64,000 nucleotides of DNA from Eledone cirrhosa. Lineage: Eukaryota. The translations under genes were made by a program, and so were the position numbers. Of this stretch, positions 1,929 through 58,655 are shown one piece after another. The stretch lies in NCBI GenBank assembly GCA_964016885.1, contig OZ024757.1, positions 9,672,001-9,736,000 of the forward strand, in the 5' to 3' direction. Each line of letters begins with the position of its first letter. The first letter of the stretch is position 1. The notes below the pieces were generated by a model, which saw only the letters and a list, made by a program, of their open reading frames with translations, was not told the DNA's origin and did no database searches.

Positions 1929-4160
1929 CAAGCATGTTCTACAACGTGAGGACCAAAAACGTGAGGTGTTCAGGATTGCTAGGCAATGTGTCAAGGAAAA
2001 CAGTCATATTGTCGGGGAGAAGTGTGTACTTAATGATGACAGCGTACTTGCCATCACCGACGCCGATAAGAAGGTAGCTTGGAAGTGTCACTATGAACGG
2101 CTACTAAATGAGGAGAATAAATGGTAGAAAGACAGTCTCCCCCACATCGACCCAATAGAGGGACCAGCAGTGTTAGTCGAGGGTAGTATAATAAGTAAGG
2201 CAATCAAAGATATGAAGACGGGCAAGGCGGCTGGGCCTTCGGAAATAGTTGCCGAGATGCTGAAGGCATCTGGTACGGTGGGACACACCATGGTCACCCG
2301 GATAGTCAACCAAGTCATACAGCATGGGGTTGTTCCGAAGGACTGGCGTAGCAGCATCATCGTTAACTGTTATAAGGGTAAAGGAGATGCCCTAGATAGG
2401 AGTAACTATAGAGGTATTAAATTAATCGACCAGGTCATGAAGGTCACGGAAAAAGTAATAGCGCAACTAATCAGAGAGCGAATTGATCTAGATGAAATGC
2501 AGTTCGGGTTTGTGTCAGGCAAAAGTACCACAGACGCTCTTTTCATTGTACGACAACTACAGGAGAAGTACCTAGCTAAAAGTAAACCCCTATACTTAGC
2601 TTTCGTCGACTTGGAGAAGGCCTTCGACAGAGTCCCCCGTTCCATTATCTGGTGGGCTCTTAGAAAACTAGGTGTTGATGAATGGCTTGTGAGAGCTATA
2701 CAATCCATGTATAAAGATACAGTCAGCAAGGTTAGAATTAACAACGAATATAGTGAAGAGTTTAGTGTAAAAGTTGGTGTTCATCAGGGCTCTGTTCTTA
2801 GCCCCCTACTATTTATTATTGCCCTCCAGGCTATAACAGTGGAGTTCAAGACCGGCTGCCCATGGGAACTCCTATACGCAGATGATCTAACGCTCATAGC
2901 TGAATCAATGGCCGAGCTAGAGAAGAAATTCCAAACATGGAAGCACGGCCTAGAATCAAAAGGCCTTAAAATTAACCTGGCTAAGACTAAAGTTCTAGTT
3001 TGTAAGAAAGAAAATAAGGCGGCGGTCCTCTCCGGGAAGTGGCCATGCGCAGAGTGTAGGAAAGGCGTAGGTAGAAATTCCATTTTGTGTCCCAGATGCA
3101 AAGTTTGGGTGCATAAAATATGTAGTGGGATCACAGGTAAGCTAACTAAGAACATAGATTTTACATGTGGCCGGTGTTCTGGGGCAATAAGTAGCAGCAA
3201 GTGCCCACAAAATACTAGCTCTTTCAACTGCGCAGAGGGTTCTATAGAAATAGTGGACAGCTTCCGTTAACTGGGTGACAAAATCACCAGTGGGGGAGGG
3301 TGCTCTGAAAGTACAGTAGCTAGAGTCAGAACTGGGTGGAAAAAGTTCAGAGAGCTTATACCACTATTAGCCGCTAAAGGGTTCTCCCTAAAAATGAAAG
3401 GCAGGTTGTACGATGCCTGCATACGAACAGCAATGTTGCATGGCAGTGAGACCTGGGCATTGTGTGCAGGGGATATACGCAGACTAGAGAGAAACGAACC
3501 TTGCATGCTCCGCTGGATGTGTAATAGTAACATACGTGAACGACAAAGCATAAACGAACTAAGGAAAAAATTAGAAATAAGAGGGATCAGATGTTGTTTA
3601 CTCAAGAGAAGGCTACGTTGGTATGGTCACGTGATGCGCATGAAGGACGATAGCTGTATAACAAAGTGCAGGGCAATAAAGATAGACGGTAGCCACGGAA
3701 TAGGCAGACCCAGAAAAACCTGGGACGAGCTGATAAACTCCGACCTCACACACTTACAACTCACCAAGACAATGTCACTGGACCGAGACCTTTGGCGGTA
3801 CTCAGTAATAGAGAAGACTGGCCTTACCTAAATACAAAGTAAAACCTACTACACCCCCGTCCCACTACGCCCACCCCCACCCCATCCACACCGCCCCCTT
3901 CTATGTAAAGTTATGTTGGTGCCACACCATCCAGGCCGAAACAAATGAGATCGTGTAGGTGTCACGACAAAAAAACACACAGTCCACGCTGTAATGTGAC
4001 CATGTAGGCAACACGGTAAAAACCTCCCAGTCCACACTGTAAATGTGGTTGGTGTTAGGAAGGGCATCCAGCCGTAGAAAACCTGCCAGACAGTCCTATG
4101 CGAGCAAGACAACCACTCTTGCCTCAAGTGGGAAAACACCCATCCAAACCCATGCAAGCA
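1929..4160 (+). mobile_element. 5'-truncated RTE-clade LINE (subfamily A): RT, PHD-like finger, C-terminus and 3' UTR
   Basis: ORFs 2170-3270 (QFGF, AFVDLEKAFDRV, GVHQGSVLSPLLF, YADD) and 3394-3831 (RRLRWYGHVMRM, GRPRKTW); premature stops near 2125 and 3268. Confidence 0.95.
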
Positions 4161-11316: not shown

Positions 11317-11383
11317 ATACTCACCGTTTGATTTGGAAAAACTTAAAATGCTCACATATATATGTGTATGTAATTATCTATGC

Positions 11384-11435
<52 letters not shown>

Positions 11436-11447
11436 ATTTATCTAAGC

Positions 11448-11485
<38 letters not shown>

Positions 11486-11736
11486 TTATATATGTATTTA
11501 TCTATGTATTTATCTATATGCATGGATATATATATATATGTATTTATCTATGCATGTATGAATATATAAAATATATATATATATATATATGTAAGTATTT
11601 ATATATGCATGTATAAATATATATGTATTTATCTCTGCATGTATGCATACATGTATATATATATAGATATATATATGTATTATCTATACATGTATGTATA
11701 TATATATATACATATATATGTATTTATCTATACATG

Positions 11737-11781
<45 letters not shown>

Positions 11782-11794
11782 TTATCTATACATG

Positions 11795-11849
<55 letters not shown>

Positions 11850-11862
11850 TTATCTATACATG

Positions 11863-11914
<52 letters not shown>

Positions 11915-11980
11915 AGTATTTATCTATACATGTATATATATATATATATATATATGTATATAAGTATTTATCTATACATG

Positions 11981-12016
<36 letters not shown>

Positions 12017-12018
<2 letters not shown>

Positions 12019-12664
12019 TAAAGTGACCAGTGAAAAACTCGGTACATCTACATATGTATACGTGTGTGTATTCATATGCATACTAGTATTTCAGTATACA
12101 TATGTGGATGTACATTTTTAACTTAATTGTTTAAGCGTCAGTCATACAAAAGTGAGTTACAAACGAAACGAAATTTAATTTCGTTTCGTTATTTGTTTTT
12201 ATCGTCTCCGTTGAACCGGTACGTACTCACGCTCTATGCAAATTAGTCTGCCCACTACTAATTTTCATAGAAAAAGCATATAACGATATGTGCTTTTACG
12301 ATTCTCTAGAAAGGCCGGAAGATAGGTAAATATTGCTGATGAGATGTAACAACATCGAAACTAGTTCAATATTCCTTGTCTGGCTTTCTGGAGAATAGAG
12401 GAAAGGTGTTTCCTCAAAAACCAGTATGACTCTAAAAACCGGTTTGTCTGTGTGTTTACATACAGAATAGCTGGACACTCACAGTAAAGTGACCAGTGAA
12501 AAACTCGGTACATCTACATATGTATACGTGTGTGTATTCATATGCATACTAGTATTTCAGTATACATATGTGGATGTACATTTTTAACTTAATTGTTTAA
12601 GCGTCAGTCATACAAAAGTGAGTTACAAACGAAACGAATTTAATTTCGTTTCGTTATTTGTTTT

Positions 12665-12667
<3 letters not shown>
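12017..12667 (+). mobile_element. Non-coding partial-tandem element (466-bp period, ~186-bp direct repeat) carrying a hammerhead ribozyme; Penelope pLTR or retrozyme-like
   Basis: 12017-12202 is repeated at 12483-12667; the hammerhead lies between the copies; the element is embedded in a TA tract. Confidence 0.75.
12329..12373 (+). ncRNA. Minimal type-I hammerhead ribozyme
   Basis: AATATTG-CTGATGA-GATGT-aaca-ACATC-GAAA-CTAG-TT-CAATATT: 7-bp stem I, intact core, 5-bp stem II, palindromic mini stem III, GUU cleavage triplet. Confidence 0.9.
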
Positions 12668-12695
<28 letters not shown>

Positions 12696-12767
12696 ATATA
12701 TATATGTATTTATCTATGTATTTATCTATGCATTTATATATATATATATATGTATTTATCTATGCAT

Positions 12768-12813
<46 letters not shown>

Positions 12814-13309
12814 CTATGTATTTATCTATATGCATGGATATATATATACATATATATTTATCTATGCATGTATGAATATATATATATATATATGTGTATG
12901 TATTTATCTATGCATGTATGAATATATAAAATATATATATATATATGTATGTATTTATCTATGCATGTATATATATATAAAATATATACATAAATATATA
13001 TATATATATATGTATTTATCTATGCATGTGTGCATACATATATATATATATGTATTTATCTATACATGTATCTATATATATATATATACATATATAAGTA
13101 TTTATCTATACATGTATGTATATATATATATATACATATATATGTATTTATCTATACATGTATGTATATATATATATATATATATGTATATACGTATTTA
13201 TCTATACATGTATGTATATATAAAATATTGTCATGTTTACAAAAATATTTTTCTAATATCGTGTTTAATATTTTATATTGTCGTCTGCTTCTCTTCTCAC
13301 GTGGTTACT

Positions 13310-17544: not shown

Positions 17545-20500
17545 TCATCATCATCGTTTAACGTCCATCTTCCACGCTAGCATGGGTTAGATGGGAAATG
17601 ATCGGGTGACCATGTCTCGCTCGTATAGGACTGTATCTGGCAGGTTTTCTACAGCTGGATGCCCTTCCTAACACCAACCACATTTCCAGTGTGGACTGGG
17701 ACCCTTTTCGTGATGACACCTACACGACCTCTTTAGTTTGGACTGGATGTTGTGGTACCAACATAACTTTACAGAGACAGGGTGGTGTTGGTGGGAGTGG
17801 GAGGATGGAGTAGGGGTTGTGGGTTGGGGTGTATATTTGGTTAGGAGGGGCCTACTGACTGTAGGTTAACTTTACACATAGGGAAGGCAGGTCTTCTCTG
17901 TTACTGTGTGGCACCATAGATCTCGATCCAGTGACATTGTCTAAGAGAGGTGTAAGTGTGCAAGGTTGGATTTTATGTCGTCCCAGGTTTTTCTGGGTCT
18001 ACCTACTCCATAACTTCCATCAATTTTGATCACCCTGCACTTTTTTATAAAGCTGTCATCTTTCATGCGCATCACATGACCATACCAACGTAATCTTCAC
18101 TCAAGTAAACAGCATCTGATCCCTCTTATTCCTAATTCTCACTTAGTTCCTTTATGTTTTGCCCTTCATGTATCTTACAATTACACATCCAACAGATCAT
18201 GCATGCCTCATTCCTTTCCAATCTGTGCAGGTCCTCTGCACACAATGCCCATGTCTCACTGCCATGTAACATTGCTGTTTGTATACAGGCATCATACAAC
18301 CTGCCTTTCATTTTTAGAGAGAAACTTTTTGTGTCTAGCAGCGGTATAAGCTCTCTGAACTTTCTCCATCCCGTTCTAAGTCTCGCTCCTACACTTTCAG
18401 AGCACCCTCCACCACTGCTGATTTTGTCACCCAGGCAATGGAAAGTGTCCACTATTTCTATAGAACCATCTGGGCAGTAGAAGGTGCTAGTATCCTGTGG
18501 GTACTTGCTGCTTATTTCACATGAGCATCGGCCACATATAAAATCTACATTCTTAGATAGCTTACCTGTGATCTCACTACATCTTTTATGTATCCATAGT
18601 TTGCATTTGGGACATAGAATGGAATTTCTACCTACTCCTTTCCTACAAACAGAACATGGCACCAGTGCCCTATTTTCTTTTCTACATACTAGACCTTTAG
18701 TCTTAGACAAGTTAACTTTAAGGCCTTTTGATTCAAGGCCATGCCTCCATTTCTAGAATTTCTTCTGTAGTTCAGCCATAGATTCGGCTAGGAGAGTTAG
18801 ATCATCTGCATATAAAAGTTCCCATGGGCAGCTAATCTTAAAGCCCTCTATTATAGCCTGAAGGGCAATAATAAACAGGAGGAATCTAAGGATGGGGCCT
18901 TGCTGAACACCTACTTTTACACTAAATTCTTCACTATATTCATTGTTAATTCTAACCTTGCTGACTGTTTCTTTATACATGGCTTGTAGAGCTCTCACAA
19001 GCCATTCATCTACTCCTACATGTCTAAGGGCCCACCAGATAATGGAGCGGGTGTGACTGTCAAAGGCTTTCTACAAGTCAACAAAAGCTAAGTATAAGGG
19101 GTTTACTTTTATCTTGCTACTTCTCCTATAGTTGCTGTACAAGGAAAAAAAGCATCTGTGGTACATTTACCTGGCACGAACCCAAACTGCATTTCATCTA
19201 GATCTATTTGGTCTCTGATTAGTTGTGCTATAACTCTTTCTGTGACCTTCATGACCTGGTCAACTACCTTAATGCCTCTATAGTTTCCATTATCTAGGGC
19301 ATCTCCTTTACCCTTGTAGCAGTTAACGATGATACTTCTATGCCAGTCATCTGGTATGACCCCATTCTGTATTACTTGGTTTACTATCTGGGTGTCCATA
19401 GTATGTTCCACCATTCCAGATGCTTTCAACATCTCAACAACTATCTCCAAATCCCAGCTGCCTTGCCCGTCTTCATATCTTTGATTGCCTTACTTACTAT
19501 ACTACCATTAACTTGCACTGCTGGTCCCTCTATTGGATCGATTTGGGGCAGACTATCTTTTTCCCATTTATTCTCCTCATTTAGTAGCCTCTCGTAGTGA
19601 CACTTCCAAGCTACCTTCTTATCAGTATCAGTGAGGGCAAGTACACCATCATCATTACAGACACACTTCTCCCCAACAATATCATGGTTTTCCTTGACAC
19701 TTTCTTTTGCGATCCTGAACACCTAACGTTGTAGAACATGCTTGAACTTTCTATTCTCCGCTTCCCTTCTTGCAGAGTACACTTGTCTCCTAGCTTCTCT
19801 CCTGGCCACATGATAGTGTTCTCTACTTCCCCCATACTTTCCAAGCCTTCTTTCTGGCCTTGATTGACTCCTCCACTTCCAAGTTACTCTCCACCTGCCT
19901 TTAGGTCTGCTCCAGCCACAGATTTCATCTGTCGCCTGCAGCAGGTTAACTTTCAAGAAGTCCCACTGTTCCTCTATATTGCACGTCTCTAATTGCTCTT
20001 CCTTATTGTCAAAGGCATCAACAAGCTTTTAAATTTGTCACTGGCTATGGGGTCCTTCAACTTCCATACTCTTCTCCTCAAGGTAGGCCTCCTCTGTCGT
20101 CGAGTACCTCTATTCCTGACTGTGAGGTAACTAACTACTAGGCTATGTTGGGAGGTGCATTCTTCACGGGGGAGGGATTTAGTGTTTACAACAGACACAG
20201 TCACACCTTCTAGTAAGGATATAATATATCTGGCTGGCATATTCCCCTGATCTACAGGTGATCAAGTGGTTTTCTCATTTTTGAAGTTTGTGTTACAGAT
20301 AGTTAGGTTATTAGTGTCACAAAATTCCAGGATCCTGAAGCCTTCCTCATTTCTAGTACCAAACCCATAGCCTCCATGGATTCCATCATAGCCATCACTA
20401 TGTTGTCCAACGTGACCTTTTAGGTCACCAGCAATAATTATGCAGTCACTGAGGTTTATTTGGGAGGAAGTGAACATTAGCAAATCATAGAACCTGTCTT

Positions 20501-22004: not shown

Positions 22005-22235
22005 TTTTATTATTATTATTATTTATTAGGTCAGGTGGATTTGCCAGAACAATTCTACTCTCCTTCTTTAGATGTCACAATCTTCCATGGCATTCCTGAG
22101 ATCATTAATCTCCAGCTGGACATCCTGAGACATCTGATCTATGTAGGTCAATCTCGGTCATCCCACTAGGGTCTTACTATGTTTAGGTATCCACCACAGG
22201 AACCAGCTCATCAGGTCATCTTACTCTCAGTAGCA
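22005..22235 (-). mobile_element. Old RTEX/RTE-like LINE 3' end with an inverted 5' piece
   Basis: Minus strand G*PRLTYIDQMSQDVQLEINDLRNAMED...RRRV followed by a (TAA)n tail; plus strand FRYPPQEPAHQVIL adjacent. Confidence 0.5.
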
Positions 22236-22369
22236 ATATCCAGCATATATTGTCCTCCGCTCCCTAGTTATTGTGGTAATCTTCAATATATGGGAGTATA
22301 TTTCTTCCACTTGAGTGAGGTATATATACACACAGACATATATATATATGTTGAGATGTATAAGAGAAG

Positions 22370-22990
22370 GATTGCATATTTGGCATGAATAAGGTTTCTC
22401 TCCATTATGTGTTCTATATCGTTTCAAGACACAGTTCAAGGCAAAATATTTTCCACATGTTTCACAGTGGAAGGGTTTCTCTCCAGTGTGAATTGTCATA
22501 TGTCTTTTCAAGTCACCACTCAACAAAAAAGATTTCCCACATATGGTAGGGTTTTTCCCACAATGGTAGGGTTTTTCTCCAGTATGACTCCACATGTGGA
22601 TGACAAGATTAGAATTATAAGTAAAATATTCCTCACATATTTTACAGTGGAAGGGTTTTTGTCCAGTGTGTATTCTTTTGTGTTCTACAAGGTTAGAACT
22701 ACGACAAAAAGATTTACGACATATTTCAGATGAATAAGGTTTATCTCCTGTGTGTATTCTTTTCTGATCTCCAAGATGGACCTTCTGAGAGAAAGATTTC
22801 CCACATATTTCACATGAAAAAGTTTTTTCCCCTGCGTGTATTCCTTTGTGTTTTACAAAATTAGCACAATGTGAACAAGATTTTCCAGATTTCACATTGG
22901 AAGGGTTTTTCACCAGTGTGTGTTCTTTTGTGAACTCCAAGATAGGTCTTCTGAGAAAGACATTTCCCACATATTTGACAGTAGTAAGAA
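22370..22990 (-). pseudogene. Degenerate C2H2 zinc-finger array (~7 fingers)
   Basis: HTGEKPFHCETCGK-type linkers with lost Cys/His, frameshifts and an insertion (CGKNPTICGK). Confidence 0.85.
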
Positions 22991-23696
22991 ATGTAGATAT
23001 CGTTAATATATGCTATGTAGTCTAATATACAAAGGGTCCATAAAAGACTGCAGAACTCCGCTTTCTTCTTCTACAAAGTTGTAATGTAGCATTTAGTTGG
23101 TACAAGTAATAAGATATATGACAGCCCAAGACTGATTTTCGCCGAAGAAAATTCAAGCATATATTATATAATTCAATCAGAGGGGGGGGGGGATAGAAAG
23201 ATGTTTGTGTGTGTAGAAATATGTGTGTGTGTAGAAATATGTGTAAGTGTTGTAATAAATCAAGATATTTCACTTCAGATAGAAAAGTTCACAATGTTTG
23301 TGTTGTGGTGGAAAAGGAAATAATACGACTTTAGTTCTCAAGACCAAATATAAAGTCAAGAAAAGTTAGTACAAACTAAATGATCACTGATTTCTGATTA
23401 AAATAATATTTTCCTGTCCTGTAAAATGTTGAACAACCACTTCAATATTTAATAATACAGGAGATAAAACATCAACTATAAGGTAAATAAGTCACCTTAT
23501 GTTATTTACAAACATTAACGTCCACCTTAATATGAAATAATCACCATAAAAGATAAAATTAGATGAGGTTTAAGTTGTAACAATGGAGCTGATATAAATG
23601 GTAATATTTCACCGTCCAGTTGACACCGGTGTCATGACTTAAAAGTCCCCCACATAATTTAATACATTCAGAAACAACTTCCGTTATATGAACTAG

Positions 23697-26429: not shown

Positions 26430-28835
26430 TCTTTGAATGTTACATTAACTACACACAAACATATACATACAGCTGGGAAGCCATATCACTTTGATATATT
26501 TGGTAAATCTTTCTCTAAATGTTGTGGCTTCACTAGACACTAACATATACAGGAGAGGAACTATATCACTGTGATGTCTGTGGTACCTCACTCTCTAAAT
26601 GTTGTGACTTCACTACACACTAACATATACAGGTGAGGAACCATATCACTGTGATGTCTGTGGTACCTCACTCTCTAAATGTTGTGGCATCACTACACAC
26701 TAACATATACAGGAGAGGAACTATATCACTGTGATGTCTGTGGTACCTCACTCTCCATATGTTGTGGCTTCACTAGACACTAACATATACAGGAGAGGAA
26801 CCATATCACTGTGATGTCTGTGGTACCTCACTCTCTAAATTCTGTGGCTTCACTAGACACTAACATATACAGGAGAGGAACCATATCACTGTGATGTCTG
26901 TGGTACCTCACTCTCTAAATATTGTGGCTTCACTAGACACTAACATATACAGGAGAGGAACCATATCACTGTGATGTCTGTGGTACCTCACTCTCTAAAT
27001 TCTGTGGCTTCACTAGACACTAACATATACAGGAGAGGAACCATATCACTGTGATGTCTGTGGTACCTCACTCTCTAAATATTGTGGCTTCACTAGACAC
27101 TAACATATACAGGAGAGGAACCATATCATTGTGATGTCTGTGGTACCTCACTCTCTAAATATTGTGGCTTCACTACACACTAACATATACAGGTGAGGAA
27201 CCATATCACTGTGATGTCTGTGGTACCTCACTCTCTAAATGTTGTGGCTTCACTACACACTAACATATACAGGAGAGGAACTATATCACTGTGATGTCTG
27301 TGGTACCTCACTCTCTAAATGTTGTGGCATCACTACACACTAACATATACAGGAGAGGAACTATATCACTGTGATGTCTGTGGTACCTCACTCTCTAAAT
27401 GTTGTGGCTTCACTACACACTAACATATACAGGTGAGGAACCATATCACTGTGATGTCTGTGGTACCTCACTCTCTAAATGTTATGGCTTTACTACACAC
27501 TAACATATACAGGTGAGGAACCATATCACTGTGATGTCTGTGGTACCTCACTCTCTAAATGTTGTGGCATCACTACACACTAACATATACAGGAGAGGAA
27601 CTATATCACTGTGATATCTGTGGTACCTCACTCTCTAAATGTTGTGGCTTCACTAGACACTAACATATACAGGTGAGGAACCATATCACTGTGGTGTCTG
27701 TGGTACCTCACTCTCTAAATGTTGTGGCTTCACTACACACTAACATATACAGGAGAGGAACCATATCACTGTGGTGTCTGTGGTACCTCACTCTCTAAAT
27801 GTTGTGGCTTCACTACACACTAACATATACAGGAGAGGAACTATATCACTGTGATGTCTGTGGTACCTCACTCTCTAAATGTTGTGGCTTCACTACACAT
27901 TAACATATACAGGAGAGGAACCATATCACTGTGGTGTCTGTGGTACCTCACTCTCTAAATGTTGTGGCTTCACTACACACTAACATATACAGGAGAGGAA
28001 CTATATCACTGTGATATCTGTGGTACCTCACTCTCTAAATGTTGTGGCTTCACTAGACACTAACATATACAGGTGAGGAACCATATCACTGTGATGTCTG
28101 TGGTACCTCACTCTCTAAATTCTGTGGCTTCACTACACACTAACATATACAGGAGAAGAACTATATCACTGTGATGTCTGTGGTACCTCACTCTCTAAAT
28201 TCTGTGGCTTCACTACACACTAACATATACAGGAGAGGACCCATATCACTGTGATGTCTGTGGTACCTCACTCTCTAAATGTTGTGACTTTACTACACAC
28301 TAACATATACAGGTGAGGAACCATATCACTGTGATGTCTGTGGTACCTCACTCTCTAAATGTTGTGGCTTTACTACACACTAACATATACAGGAGAGGAC
28401 CCATATCACTGTGATGTCTGTGGTACCTCACTCTCTAAATGTTGTGGCTTCACTACACACTAACATATACAGGAGAGGACCCATATCACTGTGATGTCTG
28501 TGGTACCTCACTCTCTAAATGTTGTGACTTTACTACACACTAACATATACAGGTGAGGAACCATATCACTGTGATATCTGTGGTACCTCACTCTCTAAAT
28601 GTTGTGGCTTTACTACACACCAACATATACAGGAGAGGAACTATATCACTGTGATGTCTGTGGTACCTCACTCTCTAAATGTTGTGGCTTCACTAGACAC
28701 TAACATATACAAGAGAGGAACCATATCACTATGATGTCTGTGGTACCTCACTCTCTAAATGTTGTGGCTTTACTACACACTAACATATACAGGAGAGGAA
28801 CTATATCACTGTGATGTCTCTGGTACCTCACTCTA
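26430..28835 (+). repeat. 80-bp tandem satellite (~29 units) derived from a C2H2 zinc-finger codon repeat
   Basis: Unit taacatatacaggagaggaaccatatcactgtgatgtctgtggtacctcactctctaaatgttgtggcttcactacacac reads YTGEEPYHCDVCGTSLSKCCGFTTH*; exact 80-nt period from 26541 to 28781. Confidence 0.95.
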
Positions 28836-28989
28836 TAAAATTTGTTTGCCTTTAAGAAACCACTGGTAAATGAAATAATTGCCTTATGTTGTTTATTAAA
28901 TAACTATTAAGCTCTGTTACCTACATAGAGCACTCTTTTTTCCTGGACTTTTCCGACGGAATTACTTCACATATATATATATATATATA

Positions 28990-37474: not shown

Positions 37475-40400
37475 ATGCTGTAAAATGGAGGGGTAGAGAG
37501 GGTCCTTGAGTCTAGTAAGACATCCTCTCTAGTGCTGGTGGCACAAATAAAAGCACCCAGTCCATGCTGTAAAGTGGCGCTGGTGTTAGGAAGGGCATCC
37601 AACCAGTGTATCAATGCCTAAACGCTTATCAGCACAGCAACAAATAGGAACAACAATAAAATATGAAGACGTCGCACCTCAGAGTTGCAACACTTAATGT
37701 TGGCACTCTCAGAGGTAGATCTGCTGAAATAGCGGAGATGCTGGAGAGAAAGCAGGTGGATGTGTGCTGCGTGCAAGAGGTGAGATGGGGAGGTGCCTCT
37801 GCGAGACTAGTCGTAGGCAAACGTCTTAGCTATAAGCTATTCTGGGTAGGTAAGGATGATGGGTTAGGGGGAGTAGGCATTTTCCTGGCTGAGAAATGGA
37901 TCAATAAGACAATAGAGGTAGTTCGAGTTAGTAATCGAATATTTAAGCTTAGATTAGTTGTAGGTAGGAGACTACTGACAATCATCTCGGTCTATGCTCC
38001 CCAAGCAGGCCTAGGCAAAGATGAGAAAGACTGCTTTTATGAGCAACTTTTACAAACAACCGCAATGACAGAAGACGGAGACATCGTTATGCTAGCAGGA
38101 GACTTCAATGGTCATGTTGGACAGCTCCAGGATGGTTACACTGGGGTACATGGTGGGCACGGTTACGGTTCAAGAAATGAAGAAGGAGTGAGACTTCTTG
38201 AATTTTGTGATGCAGGTACATTGACTATTTGCAACACAACTTCCAGAAACCTGCCAATCACCTAATAACCTACAAATCTGGTGAGCACATAAGCCAGATT
38301 GACTTCTTACTAGTTAGGCAGCGGGACAGGCAGATGGTGTCAAATACCAAGGCATACCCTGGGGAAGAATGTACCCCACAGCATAGGTTATTTGTTAGTG
38401 ATATCTCAGTAAGCAAGAGATGGAATGAGACATATAGGAAGGTGTGGAGAAGAAAGGTCTGGAAGCTAAAAGGCCTTTCACTAAAATACAAATTTAGGAA
38501 AGCCCTTCAAGATGTATATGACGAAAAAGAAGACGATTTAGAGACGTATGACATAGATAATAACTGGAATTTCTCACGTGACAACTTGCTGCAGGCTACT
38601 GATGAAACTTGTGGCTGGAGCAGAGCTCCAACCAGACAGAGAGTGACCTGGTGGTGGAACAGCACAGTAGATAAGGCTATTAAAGAAAAAAGACTAGCAT
38701 GGAAGGCTTGGAAAAAGGGTGGAATTAGGGAAGAATATACAGCCACTAAGAGAGAAGCTAGACGTCAGGTGTACATAGCACGCAGGGAGGCAGAGAGTAG
38801 GAGGTTTGCCAATGTTCTGCGATGGGAAGATCAGAGGCGTGCGGTGTTCCACATTGCAAGGCAGTGTGTCAATGCAAATCAGGATTTTGTTGAAGATAAA
38901 TGTGTCCGGGATGATGCCGGTGTACTTAGTGTCACGAATGATCAGAAAAAGGAGGCCTGGAAATGTCATTATGAGAGACTGATGAATGTGGAGAACAAAT
39001 GGGAGAGAGAGAAATTACCCTTGGTAGATCCGACAGAGGGACCAGCTATTGAGATTGACGAATATAGGGTCCAAGAGGCGATTAGGGAAATGAAAAATGG
39101 TAAGGCTGCCGGACCATCGGGAATAGTTGCTGAGATGCTGAAGGCATCAGGGGACGTAGGCACTAAACTGGTTGCACGCATCATCAATCAGGCTATATAT
39201 GGTGGTGTCATACCCAAAGACTGGTGCAGCAGTATTCTCATAAATTGCTACAAAGGTAAAGGGGATGCTCTGGAGAGGAGCAATTATAGGGGTATAAAAC
39301 TGATAGATCAGGTTATGAAAGTGGCAGAAAGGATTTTAGCACAACTAATTAGATAAAGGGTCAAACTAGATGAGATGCAGTTTGGTTTTGTGCCTGGGAA
39401 GAGTACAACAGATGCCTTCTTCTTGGTGAGACAATTGCAAGAGAGGTTCTTAGAGAAGAATAAGCCACTATACTTAGCCTTTGTTGACCTAGAGAAGGCC
39501 TTTGATAGGGTACCCCGATCTGTCATCTGGTGGTCCCTAAGGAAGCTAGGTGTTGAGGAATGGCTTGTGAGGACAGTGCAAACTTTGTACAGAGGTACTC
39601 TCAGTAAAGTCAGGGTAGGAATGGAGTTTAGTGAGGAATTCCAGATACAAGTAGGAGTACATCAGGGTTCGGTCCTCAGCCCGCTCTTGTTCATTATAGT
39701 CCTCCAAGCCATAACAGAGGAGTTTAAGACTGGCTGTCCATGGGAACTTCTCTATGCTGACGATCTGGTTCTTATAGCAGAATCAGTAGAGGAGCTAGAG
39801 AATAAATTCTGGCTATGGAAACAGCAGTTGGAAGCAAGAGGACTGAGAGTGAACCTAGCTGAGACAAAAGTGTTGATGAGTAGAAAAGAGGACAAAACCC
39901 TCATTCCGTCAGGGAAATGGCCATGTTCGATATTCAGAAAAGGAACTGGCATAAATTCTATAAAATGCGCACAATGCAGATCCTGGGTACACAAGAGATG
40001 TAGCGGGATAGCAGGCAAACTAACAGGTAGGGAGAAATACGTATGCAGTAGATGTACAGGGAAATTAGACAGTAGAAGTCGCAGTGATAGACACATTTTT
40101 CAAATGCAGGAGGGTGCTATAGAAGTGGTGGATAGCTCCCGGTACCTAGGAGATCAGATTAGCATGGGATGAGGGTATTCCGAGGCCATAGTGTCGAGAA
40201 TAAGGACGGGTTGGAAGAAGTTTAGGGAGCTGCTTCCTCTGCTGACGAAGAAGGGTTTCTCCCTGCGTACGAAAGGCCGGTTGTATGATGCCTGTGTGAG
40301 GAGCGCGATGCTGCATGGTAGTGAGACATGGGCAGCAACTGCAGAGGATATGTGACGGCTGGAGAGAAATGAGACAAGCATGCTCCGTTGGATGTGCAGT

Positions 40401-43184: not shown

Positions 43185-43635
43185 GTGAATTATTTATCAC
43201 AGACACCACAGTGATATGGTTCCTCTCCTGTATATGTTAGTGTGTAGTGAAGCCACAACATTTAGAGAAGGATTTATCACAGTGATATGGTTCCTCTCCT
43301 GTATATGTTAGTGTGTAGGGAAGCCACAACATTTAGAGAATTATTTACCACAGACATCACAGGGATATGGTTCCTCTCCTGTATATGTTAGTGCCTAGTG
43401 AAGCCACAACATTTAGAGAATTATTTACCACAGACATCACAGTGATATAATTCCTCTCCTATATGTTAGTGTGTAGTGAAGCCACATTTACAGAATTATT
43501 TACCACAGACATCACAGTGATATAGTTCCTCTCCTATATGTTAGTGTGTAGTGAAGCCACAACATTTAGAGAATTATTTACCACAGACATCACAGTGATA
43601 TAGTTCCTCTCCTTATGTTAGTGTGTAGTGAAACC
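43185..43635 (-). repeat. About 5-6 copies of the ~80-bp finger-derived repeat in the putative 3' UTR of the ZNF gene
   Basis: gtgatatggttcctctcctgtatatgttagtgtgtagtgaagccacaacatttagaga is the reverse complement of the 26.5-28.8 kb unit. Confidence 0.9.
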
Positions 43636-43654
43636 AAAAATAAAAATGATTTAC

Positions 43655-44016: not shown

Positions 44017-45789
44017 TTAAGATTTCTCCTCTGCATGTATGAGATTGTGAGTAGTTAGGCTACTTTTCCCAGAGAATGATATACCACAGATACCACAGTG
44101 ATATGGCTTGTCTCCTGTATGTATACGTTTGTGGCTAGTTAAGGTACTACCTTCAGAGAATGATTTACCACAGATATCACAGTGGTATGGCTTGTCTCCT
44201 GTATGGGTACGTTTATGGCTAGTTAAGTGACCACTTTCAGAGAATGATTTACCACAGATATCACAGTGATATGGTTTGTCACCTGTATGGGTACGTATGT
44301 GTCTCGTTAAGTGACTATTTTGAGGGAATGATTTACCACAGATATCACAGTGGTATGGCTTGTCTCCTGTATGTATACGTTTGTGGCTAGTTAAGGAACT
44401 ACTCCGAGAGAATGATTTACCACAGATATCACAGTGGTATGGCTTGTCTCCTGTATGGGTACGTTTGTGTCTAGTTAGGGTACTACTATCAGAGAATGAT
44501 TTACCACAGATATCACAGTGATATGGCTTGTCTCCTGTATGTATGCATTTGTGTCTAGTTAAGGTACTACTATTAGAGAATGATTCACCACAGATATCAC
44601 ATTGATATGGCTTGTCTGCCGTATGGGTACGTTTGTGTTTAGTTAAGGTACTACTTAATGAGAATGATTTTCCACAGATACCACAGTGATATGGCTTATC
44701 TCCTGTATGTATACGTTTGTGTTTAGTTATGGTATTACGTTCAGAGAATGATTTACCACAGATATCACAGTGATATGGCTTTTCTCCTGTATGGGTACAT
44801 TTGTGTCTCGTTAAGTGACTACTTTCAGAGAATGATTTACCACAGATATCACAGTGATATGGCTTGTCACCTGTATGGGTACGTTTGTGGATATTTAAGG
44901 TATTACTTACAGAGAAAGATTTACCACAGATATCACAGTGATATGGCTTGTCTCCTGTATGTATATGTTTGTGTCTCGTTAAGTGACTACTTTGAGGGAA
45001 TGATTTACCACAGATATCACAGTGATATGGCTTGTCTCCTGTATGTATACGTTTGTGTCTAGTTAATGCGTTACTTTCAGAGAATGATTTACCACAGATA
45101 TCACAGTGATATGGCTTGTCTCCTGTATGTATACGTTTGTGTCTAGTTAAGGCGATACTTTCAGAGAATGGTTTACCACAGATATCACAGTGATATGGCT
45201 TGTCACCTGTATGGGTACGTATGTGTCTCGTTAAGTGACTACTTTGAGGGAATGATTTACCACAGATATCACAGTGGTAAAGCTTGTCTCCTGTATGTAT
45301 ACGTTTGTGGTTAGTTAAAGAACTACTCCGAGAGAATGATTTACCACAGATATCACAGTGGTATGGCTTGTCTCCTGTATGGGTACGTTTGTGTCTAGTT
45401 AGGTTACTACTATCAGAAAATGATTTACCACAGATATCACAGTGATATGGCTTGACTCCTGTATGTATACGTTTGTGTCTAGTTAAGGTACTACTATTAG
45501 AGAATGATTCACCACAGATATCACAGTGATATGGCTTGTCTCCTGTATGGGTACGTTTGTGGTTAGTTAAGGTACTACTTAATGAGAATGATATACCACA
45601 GATATCACAGTGATATGGCTTATTTCCTGTATGTATACATTTGTGTTTAGTTATGGTATTATGTTCAGAGAATGATTTACCACAGATATCACAGTGATAT
45701 GGCTTGTCTCCTGTATGGGTACATATGTGTCTCGTTAAGTTACTACTTACTGAGAAAGATTTACCACATATATCACAGTGATATGACAT
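44017..45789 (-). CDS. Poly-C2H2 zinc-finger protein ORF (21 fingers from the internal ATG; frame stays open to 46212, 26 fingers)
   Basis: 590-aa ORF of tandem 28-aa [10 protein letters not shown]...H-x3-HTGDKP units; no effector domain visible. Confidence 0.85.
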
Positions 45790-46454
<665 letters not shown>

Positions 46455-56126: not shown

Positions 56127-58655
56127 TCATCATCATCATCGTTTAACGTCCATATTCCACGCTTGCATGGGTTTGGACGGGAGTTTTCCCACTTGAGGCA
56201 AGAGTGTTTGTCTTGTTCGCATAGGACTGTCTGGCGGATTTTCTACGGCTGGATGCCCTTCCTAACACCAACCACATTTACAGTGTAGAACTGGCAGGTT
56301 TTTACCGTGTTACCTACACGGCCACATTACAGCATGGACTGTGTTTTTTGTCGTGAGACCTACACGACCTCATTTGTTTCGGCCTGGATGTTGTGGTACC
56401 AACATAACTTTACATGGAAAGAGGTGAAGTGGATAGGGTGTGGGTATATTTTGTTAGAGGTGTCTACTGACTGTAGTAGGTTTTACTTTGTATTTAGGTA
56501 AGGCGGGTCTTCTCTATTACTGTGTAGCGCCAAAGATCTCGGTCCAGAGACATTGTCTTGGAGAGGTGTAAGTGTGTGAGGTCGGAATTTATCAAGTCGT
56601 CCCAGGTTTTTCTGGATCTGCCTACTCCGTGGCTACCGCCTATTTTTATTGCCCTGCACTTGTTTATACAGCTGTCGTCTTTCATGCGCATCACGTGACC
56701 ATACCAACGTAGTCTTCTCTCGAGTAAACAACATCTGATCCCTCTTATTCCTAATTTCTCCCTTAGTTTGTTTATGCTTTGCCGTTCACGTATATTACTA
56801 TTACACATTCAGCGGAGCATGCAAGCTTCGTTCCTCTCTAGTCTGCGTATATCCTCTGCACACAATGCCCAGGTCTCACGGCCATGCAACATATATGTTC
56901 GTATGCAGGCATCATACAGCCTACCTTTCATTTTTAAGGAGAACCCTTTAGCGGCTAATAGTGGTATAAGCTCTCTGAACTTTTTCCATCCAGTTCTGAC
57001 TCTAGCTACTGTACTTTCAGAGCACCCTCCCCTACTGCTGATTTTGTCACCCAGGTAACGGAAGCTGTCCACTATTTCTATAGAACCATCTGTGCAATCG
57101 AATGAGCTAGTATTCCGTGGGCACTTGCTGCTACTTATTGCACCAGAGCACCGGCCACATATAAAAGCAATGTTCTTAGTTAGCTTACTTGTGAACCCCC
57201 TACATCTTTTATGCACCCATACTTTGCATTTGGGACATAAAATGGAGTTTCTAGCTACTCCTTTCCTACACACTGAGCATGGCCATTTCCCGGATAGGAC
57301 CGGCGCCCTATTTTCCTTCCTACAAACTAGAACTTTAGTCTTAGACAGGTTAATTTTAAGGCCTTTTGATTCTAGGCCATGCTTCCATGTTTGGAATTTC
57401 TTCTCTAGTTCGGCCATTGATTCAGCTATGAGCGTTAGATCATCTGCGTATAGGAGTTCCCATGGGCAGCCGGTCTTGAACTCCACTGTTATAGCCTGAA
57501 GGGCAATAATAAATAGTAGGGGGATAATAACGGAGCCCTGATGAACACCAACTTTTACGCTAAACTCTTCACTATATTCGTTGTTAATTCTAACCTTGCT
57601 GACTGTTTCTTTATACATGGCTTGTATAGCTCTCACAAGCCATTCATCAACACCTAGTTTTCTAAGAGCCCACCAGATAATGGAACGGGGGACTCTGTCG
57701 AAGGCTTTCTCCAAGTCGACAAAACCTAAGTATAGGGGTTTACTTTTAGCTAGGTACTTCTCCTGTAGTTGTCGTACAATGAAAAGAGCGTCTGTGGTAC
57801 TTTTGCCAGACACAAACCCGAACTGCATTTCATCTAGATCAATTCTCTCTCTGATTAGTTGCACTATTACTTTTTCTGTGACCTTCATGACCTGGTCGAT
57901 TAATTTAATGCCTCTATTGTTACTCCTATCTAGGGCATCTCCTTTACCCTTATAACAGTTAATGATGATGCTGCTACGCCAGTCCTTCGGAACAACCCCA
58001 TTCTGTATGACTTGGTATAATATCCGTGTGACCATGGTGTGTCCCACCGTTCCAAGGCTTTCAGCATTTCAGCAACTATTTCCGAAAGCCCAGCCGCCTT
58101 ACCCGTCTTCATATCTTTGATTGCCTTACTTATTATACTACCTTCGACTAACACTGCTGTTCCCTCTATTGGGTCGATGTGGGGGAAACTGTCTTTCTCC
58201 CATTTATTATCCTCATTTAGTAGCCTTTCGTAGTGACACTTCCAAGCTACCTTCTTATCAGCATCAGTGATGGCAAGTACGCCATCATCATTAAGTACAC
58301 ACTTCTCCCCGAAAATATCACGGTTTTCCTTGACACATTGCCTAGCAATCCTGAACACCTCACGTTTTTGATCCTCGCGTTGTAGAACATCTTTGAACTT
58401 TCTTTCCTCTGCTTCCCTTCTTGCGAAGTACACATGTCTCCTAGCTTCCCTCCTGGCCACCAGATAGTGTTCTATACTTCTCCCATCCCGCCATGCTTTC
58501 CAAGCCTGCTTTTTGGCCTTAATTGACTCCTCCACCTTACTGTTCCACCACCATGTTACTCTCCTCCTGCCTATAGATCTGCTCCAGACACAGATTTCAT
58601 CTGCTGCCATCTGCAAGTTTGCTTTCAGGAATTCCCATTGTTCCTCTATATTGTA
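56127..58655 (-). mobile_element. 5'-truncated RTE LINE (subfamily A)
   Basis: ORFs 57930-58799 (part), 56809-58047 (YADD, PHD-like) and 56494-56808; (GAT)n tail. Confidence 0.95.

Follow-up and report, generated by a model that had tools for sequence, protein, structure and literature searches.

A 651-bp insertion carrying a hammerhead ribozyme motif lies in a TA microsatellite within a 64,000-nucleotide stretch of Eledone cirrhosa DNA (the window), which raises the question of what kind of element it is and how it was copied into this site. An earlier note proposed a young non-autonomous ribozyme retroelement that a Penelope reverse transcriptase (RT) had possibly copied off an RNA in circular or multimeric form, and weighed a retrozyme against the pLTR of a Penelope-like element (PLE). 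The proposal fits all of the evidence gathered here, and the choice falls on a retrozyme, as the inserts are ORF-less and form arrays. We consider it probable that the insertion belongs to an ORF-less 466-bp hammerhead retrozyme that relies on a Penelope-like RT/GIY-YIG protein to copy it in trans, with priming at two sites of a predicted circular RNA. Two-site priming of the Penelope type, taking a circular and a linear multimeric template together, can be proposed with high confidence. The features of the locus are as follows.

12017..12667, + strand: entire insertion, a single 5'-truncated arm of 1.4 units with its end at site B
12017..12482, + strand: 466-bp unit (u1 = 12017), ORF-less and strongly folded
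12017..12202, + strand: apparent direct repeat, copy 1 (u1-u186)
12483..12667, + strand: apparent direct repeat, copy 2, shorter by 1 nt
12329..12373, + strand: hammerhead core, type I, cut predicted after U12366 (u350); stems I and II with compensatory changes
12301..12396, + strand: extended stem I flanking the hammerhead, from fold prediction
12236..12243, + strand: ATGCAAAT octamer, putative internal promoter element, preserved in 14 of the 15 copies aligned from the two families
12594..12599, + strand: site A (u112-117), fixed 3' end of one arm family-wide and probable RT start; internal twin at 12128-12133
12665..12667, + strand: site B (u184-186), fixed 3' end of the other arm, end of the window copy and probable RT start; internal twin at 12200-12202
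12600..12667, + strand: "tail" of ~70 nt between A and B, predicted to form a hairpin of 13 bp
11387..12016, no strand: left target flank, (TA)n-rich
12668..13222, no strand: right target flank, (TA)n-rich

The hammerhead reported by the earlier note at 12329-12373 was found as described, with CUGAUGA at 12336, GAAA at 12357, ACUAGU at helix III, a 7-bp stem I and a 5-bp stem II; the claimed extension of stem I appears at ~12301-12396 in the predicted fold. The best Rfam match was HH9 at 12318-12389 (E 1.5e-7), whose 36.5 bits fall short of the gathering score of 52, and nothing in the entire 64-kb window reached the gathering level. Our own hammerhead descriptor gave one match in the window and none in 100 Markov simulations of it. 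The assignment to type I was correct; the description as a minimal, PLE-type motif was not, as the hammerhead is of the canonical type with a weak helix III. A minimal hammerhead is defined in the accessible text of PMC4209133 by a long helix II, a short helix I and an extra base following position 9; here, helix II has 5 bp, helix I has 7 bp and is extended, and the extra base after position 9 is absent. The triplet of the window copy is GUU, which was present in 116 of 201 unit passes, with GUC in 85.

Helix III is effectively one A-U pair, with the palindrome CUAG closing it. Its formation in a monomer was computed to cost ~6 kcal/mol, and two ACUAGU strands were computed to pair at -4.8. 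Because helix III is costly in the monomer and the ACUAGU strands pair, cleavage is predicted to be dimer-dependent, like that of the axolotl motif. Across 15 copies of both families in the genome, 90.8% of the cells in the hammerhead stems were paired, compared with 27-46% in slid controls, and 6 of the 13 pairs were altered on both sides, although this covariation is mostly one family-to-family divergence and represents few independent events. As compensatory change keeps the stems both within and between the families, self-cleavage seems to be under selection.

The direct repeats of 186 and 185 bp are real, forming a 186-nt alignment with one 1-nt indel at a period of 466. Rather than terminal repeats, they are what results when a cDNA of 651 nt overlaps itself on a unit of 466 nt. 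The unit has a GC content of 35.6% and, as had been claimed, lacks an ORF (in a tandem trimer, no stop-free frame exceeds 60 codons), and the permuted monomer 12117-12582 has a fold z of -11.9 against shuffles. The window copy is a B arm alone, or has at most a 5-nt A stub, and because it carries a single hammerhead it would be unable to release a monomer alone. The octamer ATGCAAAT is constant in 14 of the 15 aligned copies while its predicted pairing partner varies, and this conservation makes an internal snRNA-type promoter possible. An octamer is used by the promoter of newt satellite 2. An snRNA-type promoter is described for that satellite in the accessible text of PMC2220036.

The TA-microsatellite setting was also borne out, with the insert lying between (TA)n-rich flanks. 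The flanks are alike over ~600 bp, far more weakly than the element's own repeats; this likeness was rejected as a target-site duplication and read as older minisatellite structure. Minisatellite variants occur in the same order at 11355-12016 and 12668-13220, as though the element sat at the seam of an older duplication of 600 bp. No PLE ORF was present among the 17 window ORFs scanned, which were LINE-type or C2H2 zinc-finger, and LINE RT/endonuclease ORFs are common within the window. Arrays of C2H2 zinc fingers (84-bp period) and related 80-bp arrays, the latter resembling frame-breaking derivatives of the former, were observed at 44020-46212 (- strand), 22230-23012 (- strand), 26448-28839 and 43207-43636, and pieces of a LINE with an RT followed by a PHD finger were observed at 2128-3270, 37660-40172, 56812-58068 and 18135-18752.

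A search for other genomic copies, whose absence would have counted against the earlier reading, revealed thousands. Counted genome-wide by exact patterns in the 3.0-Gb assembly, two 26-nt variants of the hammerhead core gave 2,643 + 5,251 = 7,894 matches (reversed control, 0); what distinguishes the variants is a paired swap in stem II, A-U in one and U-A in the other. The unit was also present in four contig runs, of which three had a head-to-tail joint and all four had the paired swap, although these are uninformative on circles. The genome contains a further retrozyme family (~63% alike) of matching layout, which ends at homologous A and B sites. The loci of this second family (L171:7960-9840, L172, L178:5570-6660, L050, L054 and L062) have a period of ~490-510 bp, a GUA triplet, a U-U at the base of stem II and (TA)n ends of the A and B kinds.

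The insertion junctions carry the main evidence. Among the loci listed from 20 that had been chosen by hammerhead and not by flank, we found two fixed 3' ends, A and B, both of which run into (TA)n, with A ~70 nt upstream of B. Exact B junctions numbered 2,334 genome-wide (control, 0) and A junctions 1,216 on the + strand, where matches were not double-counted (control, 28); the A and B totals are similar, at ~2,300-2,400 each. Every insertion sample was drawn from the initial 118 Mb of contig C1. The 101 insertions picked by a B end comprised 93 plus 8 added later, with L064 (overlap) and L082 (duplicate) excluded from the first set. In 81 of the 101, the other end was formed by an inverted arm or stub that terminates at A (66 A arms, 11 A stubs and 4 long arrays resolved to A), and the remainder ran straight into TA (9), adjoined other sequence (8) or were unassigned (3). 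A second retrozyme B end was found in none of the 101. All 81 two-ended inserts were A+B, whereas an independent and equal choice of sites would give one third B+B, for which (2/3)^81 = 5e-15. When 20 loci were selected by an A end that had no listed B partner, 12 of them still had a B-type junction at the other end; the rest comprised one three-part A+A insertion (L189), one ambiguous locus (L193), five truncated or interrupted loci and one that runs off. The same pairing was present in four of these 20 loci, the micro-insertions L181, L183, L185 and L199, in which an A stub of ~11-17 nt and a B stub of ~10 nt make up ~25 nt in total. Fixed terminal repeats were absent from the parsed insertions, and a target-site duplication, which in animal non-LTR retrozymes exceeds 4 bp when present, is unreadable because both insert ends lie in (TA)n. 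The inverted copy with a tail at one end is the Penelope insertion signature.

Some loci showed further arrangements. A short two-arm insert of an autonomous PLE was observed as well, at L179. Inverted copies of unique flank (38, 3 and ~5 nt) lie across the TA run at L083, L105 and L034, as if a nicked (TA)n end had folded back prior to RNA copying; L083, which had been considered a chimera, is better read as such an inverted copy of its own flank.

The lengths of the arms bear on the template. A cleaved linear monomer would permit at most ~300 nt from B and ~230 nt from A, and the arms have median lengths near 530 nt. The cleavage site was crossed by 67 of 87 B arms and 48 of 59 A arms, and it was crossed twice by 30 and 21 of them, respectively. 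Within a locus, the distance between the A and B arms had a median of 0.9%, compared with 6% to other loci (51 loci), and mixed diagnostic-site tests amounted to 81 of 4,582. All 17 whole units at C1:30.83 Mb were identical across both arms, and the 20 units at C1:56.39 Mb comprised three sequences (13, 6 and 1). Private alleles fixed in both arms, found at 8 of 51 loci compared with 4 of 51 in a nearest-neighbour control, were not discriminating. Because arms continue past the cleavage site and near-clonality extends across both of them, the template was either a circle or a multimer left uncleaved. The near-clonal arrays agree with rolling synthesis on a circle; they agree as well with a transcript from an array of uniform units. 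Several long arrays with interspersed shared variants reflect later duplication, and one arm continues for more than 17 kb.

The 5' ends of the arms were variable. In a map from which six loci were omitted (N gap, run-off or spurious TA extension), 1 of 154 ends fell at the cut site (u349-353), where 1.7 were expected, and none of 30 further arms ended there. A candidate hot spot at u206-213, considered as a transcript start or RT collision, held 10 of the 154 ends (corrected p ~0.08) and was rejected when 0 of 30 new arms ended in it. A peak was also present at u141-154, where a palindromic hairpin biases the ends of BLAST alignments.

The resident PLEs were examined by a GIY-YIG search of the host genome, which contains many such elements; 150 of 10,595 candidates were scored, and 50 stretches around GIY-YIG elements fell into four protein clusters. 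The elements examined have an RT followed by GIY-YIG, a CxxxxCxxC motif in the linker, as in Neptune/Nematis, and minimal hammerheads. The Neptune-type elements target (TA)n and have two ends ~40-62 nt apart as judged by eye, and in one Neptune-type family all four inverted copies seen had one end of each kind. On these features, the driver protein is likely Neptune-type. Attempts to identify the driver by tail homology gave no detectable match: when the ~70-nt tail was compared with the sampled PLE 3' regions, the best non-retrozyme score was 47 and the shuffle maximum was 42. At L070 and L097, the unit is joined without TA to one Neptune-type group, the partner at L070 being a PLE ORF fragment, and at L037 it is joined without TA to another element; each of these joints keeps an 11-39-nt piece, a trace that hints at template switching, although a subsequent deletion between neighbouring elements could also have produced it. 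The resident elements also included a young Neptune-type group with a 938-aa open frame (L161:4809-7622, - strand, and L162, L166, L170 and L172), whose 3' repeat holds a minimal hammerhead reading UUGAAAA (U3-A8 replacing C3-G8) with a CCGG palindrome. The hammerhead of another PLE group reads UUGAUAA. At L057, an RT-GIY-YIG-like frame of 797 aa represents another PLE type, and a separate TA-flanked inverted element has a tail of ~125 nt.

These junctions and arms could also have arisen by two-site Penelope priming on an uncleaved linear multimer transcribed from existing arrays, in which case the hammerhead and circles would be irrelevant to insertion. A GUU triplet slows hammerhead cleavage, and its frequency here, together with the weak helix III and its monomer cost of ~6 kcal/mol, would favour such a template. 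A rate for GUU was looked for in PMC1636495 and not found. Arrays of 10-12 homogeneous units are present that could have served as sources, cleavage failed in 8 of 9 Xenopus dimers according to the accessible text of a preprint (10.64898/2026.07.22.740005), and uncut linear RNA was the main substrate of the anole PLE in vitro, according to the accessible part of PMC11167929. The compensatory changes that keep the hammerhead stems, within and between families, argue in the opposite direction, as do the lack of a transcript-start pile-up of 5' ends, with the hint at u206-213 unrepeated, and the accumulation of coral, mussel and axolotl retrozymes as circles (PMC7229834, in the portion available). 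We regard the linear template as rather unlikely, with these points on both sides taken together.

Far less probable, in our judgement, is that the unit serves as pLTR to an autonomous PLE outside the sample and that the copies are truncated ends of that element, even though the scored candidates are a small part of the GIY-YIG search, L070 joins the unit to a PLE ORF fragment and Xenopus retrozymes resemble pLTRs (24 of 57 families match Repbase TEs, and 21 of the 22 TEs are PLEs, in the accessible text of 10.64898/2026.07.22.740005). All 81 two-ended inserts consist of unit sequence between TA flanks, with arms that repeat the unit without entering coding sequence, and none of these 81, a partial sample, contained an RT + GIY-YIG ORF; the unit served as a 3' repeat in 0 of the 50 GIY-YIG stretches, whose hammerheads are minimal and different. 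We find it just as hard to credit that the ribozyme is a passenger of a satellite spread at the DNA level (by unequal exchange or extrachromosomal circles) or of LINE twin priming. Secondary duplication in the long arrays and the LINE RT/endonuclease ORFs in the window would agree with such an origin; however, spread at the DNA level would not yield two fixed strand-specific ends with variable opposite ends, and poly(A) and 3'-terminal priming are absent. The arms of L1 twin priming are not known to overlap in sequence, whereas the two arms here do.

For the hammerhead retrozyme copied in trans by a Penelope-like protein, the following course can be proposed. Arrays would be transcribed, perhaps from an internal snRNA-type promoter, and the hammerheads are predicted to cut as dimers via the ACUAGU palindrome, with the monomers ligated to circles. 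A Neptune-type PLE protein would then nick both (TA)n strands, and one DNA 3' end would start at A and the other at B, using a few bases of TA microhomology, a scheme in which the pattern is genomic and the chemistry is conjectural. Each cDNA would pass the cleavage site, often for more than one round, to a variable stop, and the two would be joined head to head, which is the observed pattern. Long arrays would be enlarged later by tandem duplication, as shown for some of them. As a tentative extension, which we put forward as possible, a PLE RT/endonuclease dimer may work on one circular ribozyme RNA, with one start per end of the double-strand-cut (TA)n and rolling in both directions, such that mirror arrays of up to ~20 identical units arise in one step.

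What is new are the junctions tying a hammerhead retrozyme to PLE-type priming; the family itself is of an expected repeat kind. A partial literature search returned no description of junctions of such a kind for a retrozyme, or of a cephalopod retrozyme. The mobilisation of animal retrozymes by PLEs has so far been argued from co-occurrence or pLTR likeness (accessible texts of PMC7229834 and 10.64898/2026.07.22.740005), and junction-level support is added here. If the tentative extension is true, the 466-nt retrozyme would be a minimal substrate exposing the origin of PLE tails and inversions. Its thousands of insertions record priming and integration, which were left open in the literature examined. 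The near-strict rule of one site per end, which holds even in 25-nt micro-insertions, constrains the PLE mechanism beyond a single in vitro study. With a small RNA, defined start sites and target, and near-intact resident PLE ORFs, a direct test is possible.

We compared the family with known systems, each as presented in the accessible parts of the sources cited. The non-autonomous MRC1-like elements of Chlamys (PMC8557442) are likewise non-coding PLE passengers with multicopy head-to-tail insertions; they are without a canonical hammerhead and have a 3' end that resembles the driver, in contrast to the retrozyme 3' end, which has no detectable driver likeness. The hammerhead of newt/axolotl satellite 2 (HHR_Amex1) shares the 1-bp helix III, the palindromic tetraloop and a possible snRNA-type internal promoter, and the axolotl motif cleaves poorly as a monomer and well as a dimer (PMC7229834). 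The Eledone unit differs in being longer, in having GUU in many copies and in a promoter suggested by the conserved octamer only.

Animal non-LTR retrozymes (PMC7229834; Li, Clavereau & Pollet 2026) share with the family a type I hammerhead per unit, a low GC content (<45-50%), ORF-less tandems, thousands of copies ranging from monomers to long arrays, a highly self-paired predicted RNA and PLEs in the genome. At 466 bp, the unit slightly exceeds the 150-450 bp given in PMC7229834 (Cervera & de la Pena 2020) and falls within the 51-972 bp of the preprint. Many Xenopus retrozyme families have a pLTR homologue, whereas none was found for the 466-bp unit among the sampled elements. Judged by its sequence, the 466-bp family has the characters of animal non-LTR retrozymes and lacks those of pLTRs (PMC4209133). 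Junctions are not described in the accessible retrozyme texts (PMC7229834; the preprint), whereas the present insertions have fixed ends at two sites, arms in mirror arrangement and a strict restriction to (TA)n targets.

At their junctions, the insertions resemble those of EN+ PLEs, namely Neptune/Nematis and the anole Poseidon PAc (PMC8557442, PMC11167929). The retrozyme differs from these elements in being ORF-less, in having a tail of ~70 nt and not 30-40, and in its canonical rather than minimal hammerhead. Its starts are nearly always one per DNA end, which the in vitro PLE data did not show, as both DNA strands used both starts alike (PMC11167929). In that study, the PLE protein nicked both strands of AT-rich DNA and made cDNA from two internal RNA sites bounding the tail; the two internal RT starts are shared by the retrozyme, together with AT-rich or microsatellite targets (PMC11167929, PMC8557442). 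PMC8557442 attributes to PLEs partial tandems, a 5'-truncated copy in inverted orientation, a one-sided tail and a bias towards microsatellites, and the retrozyme shares these traits as well.
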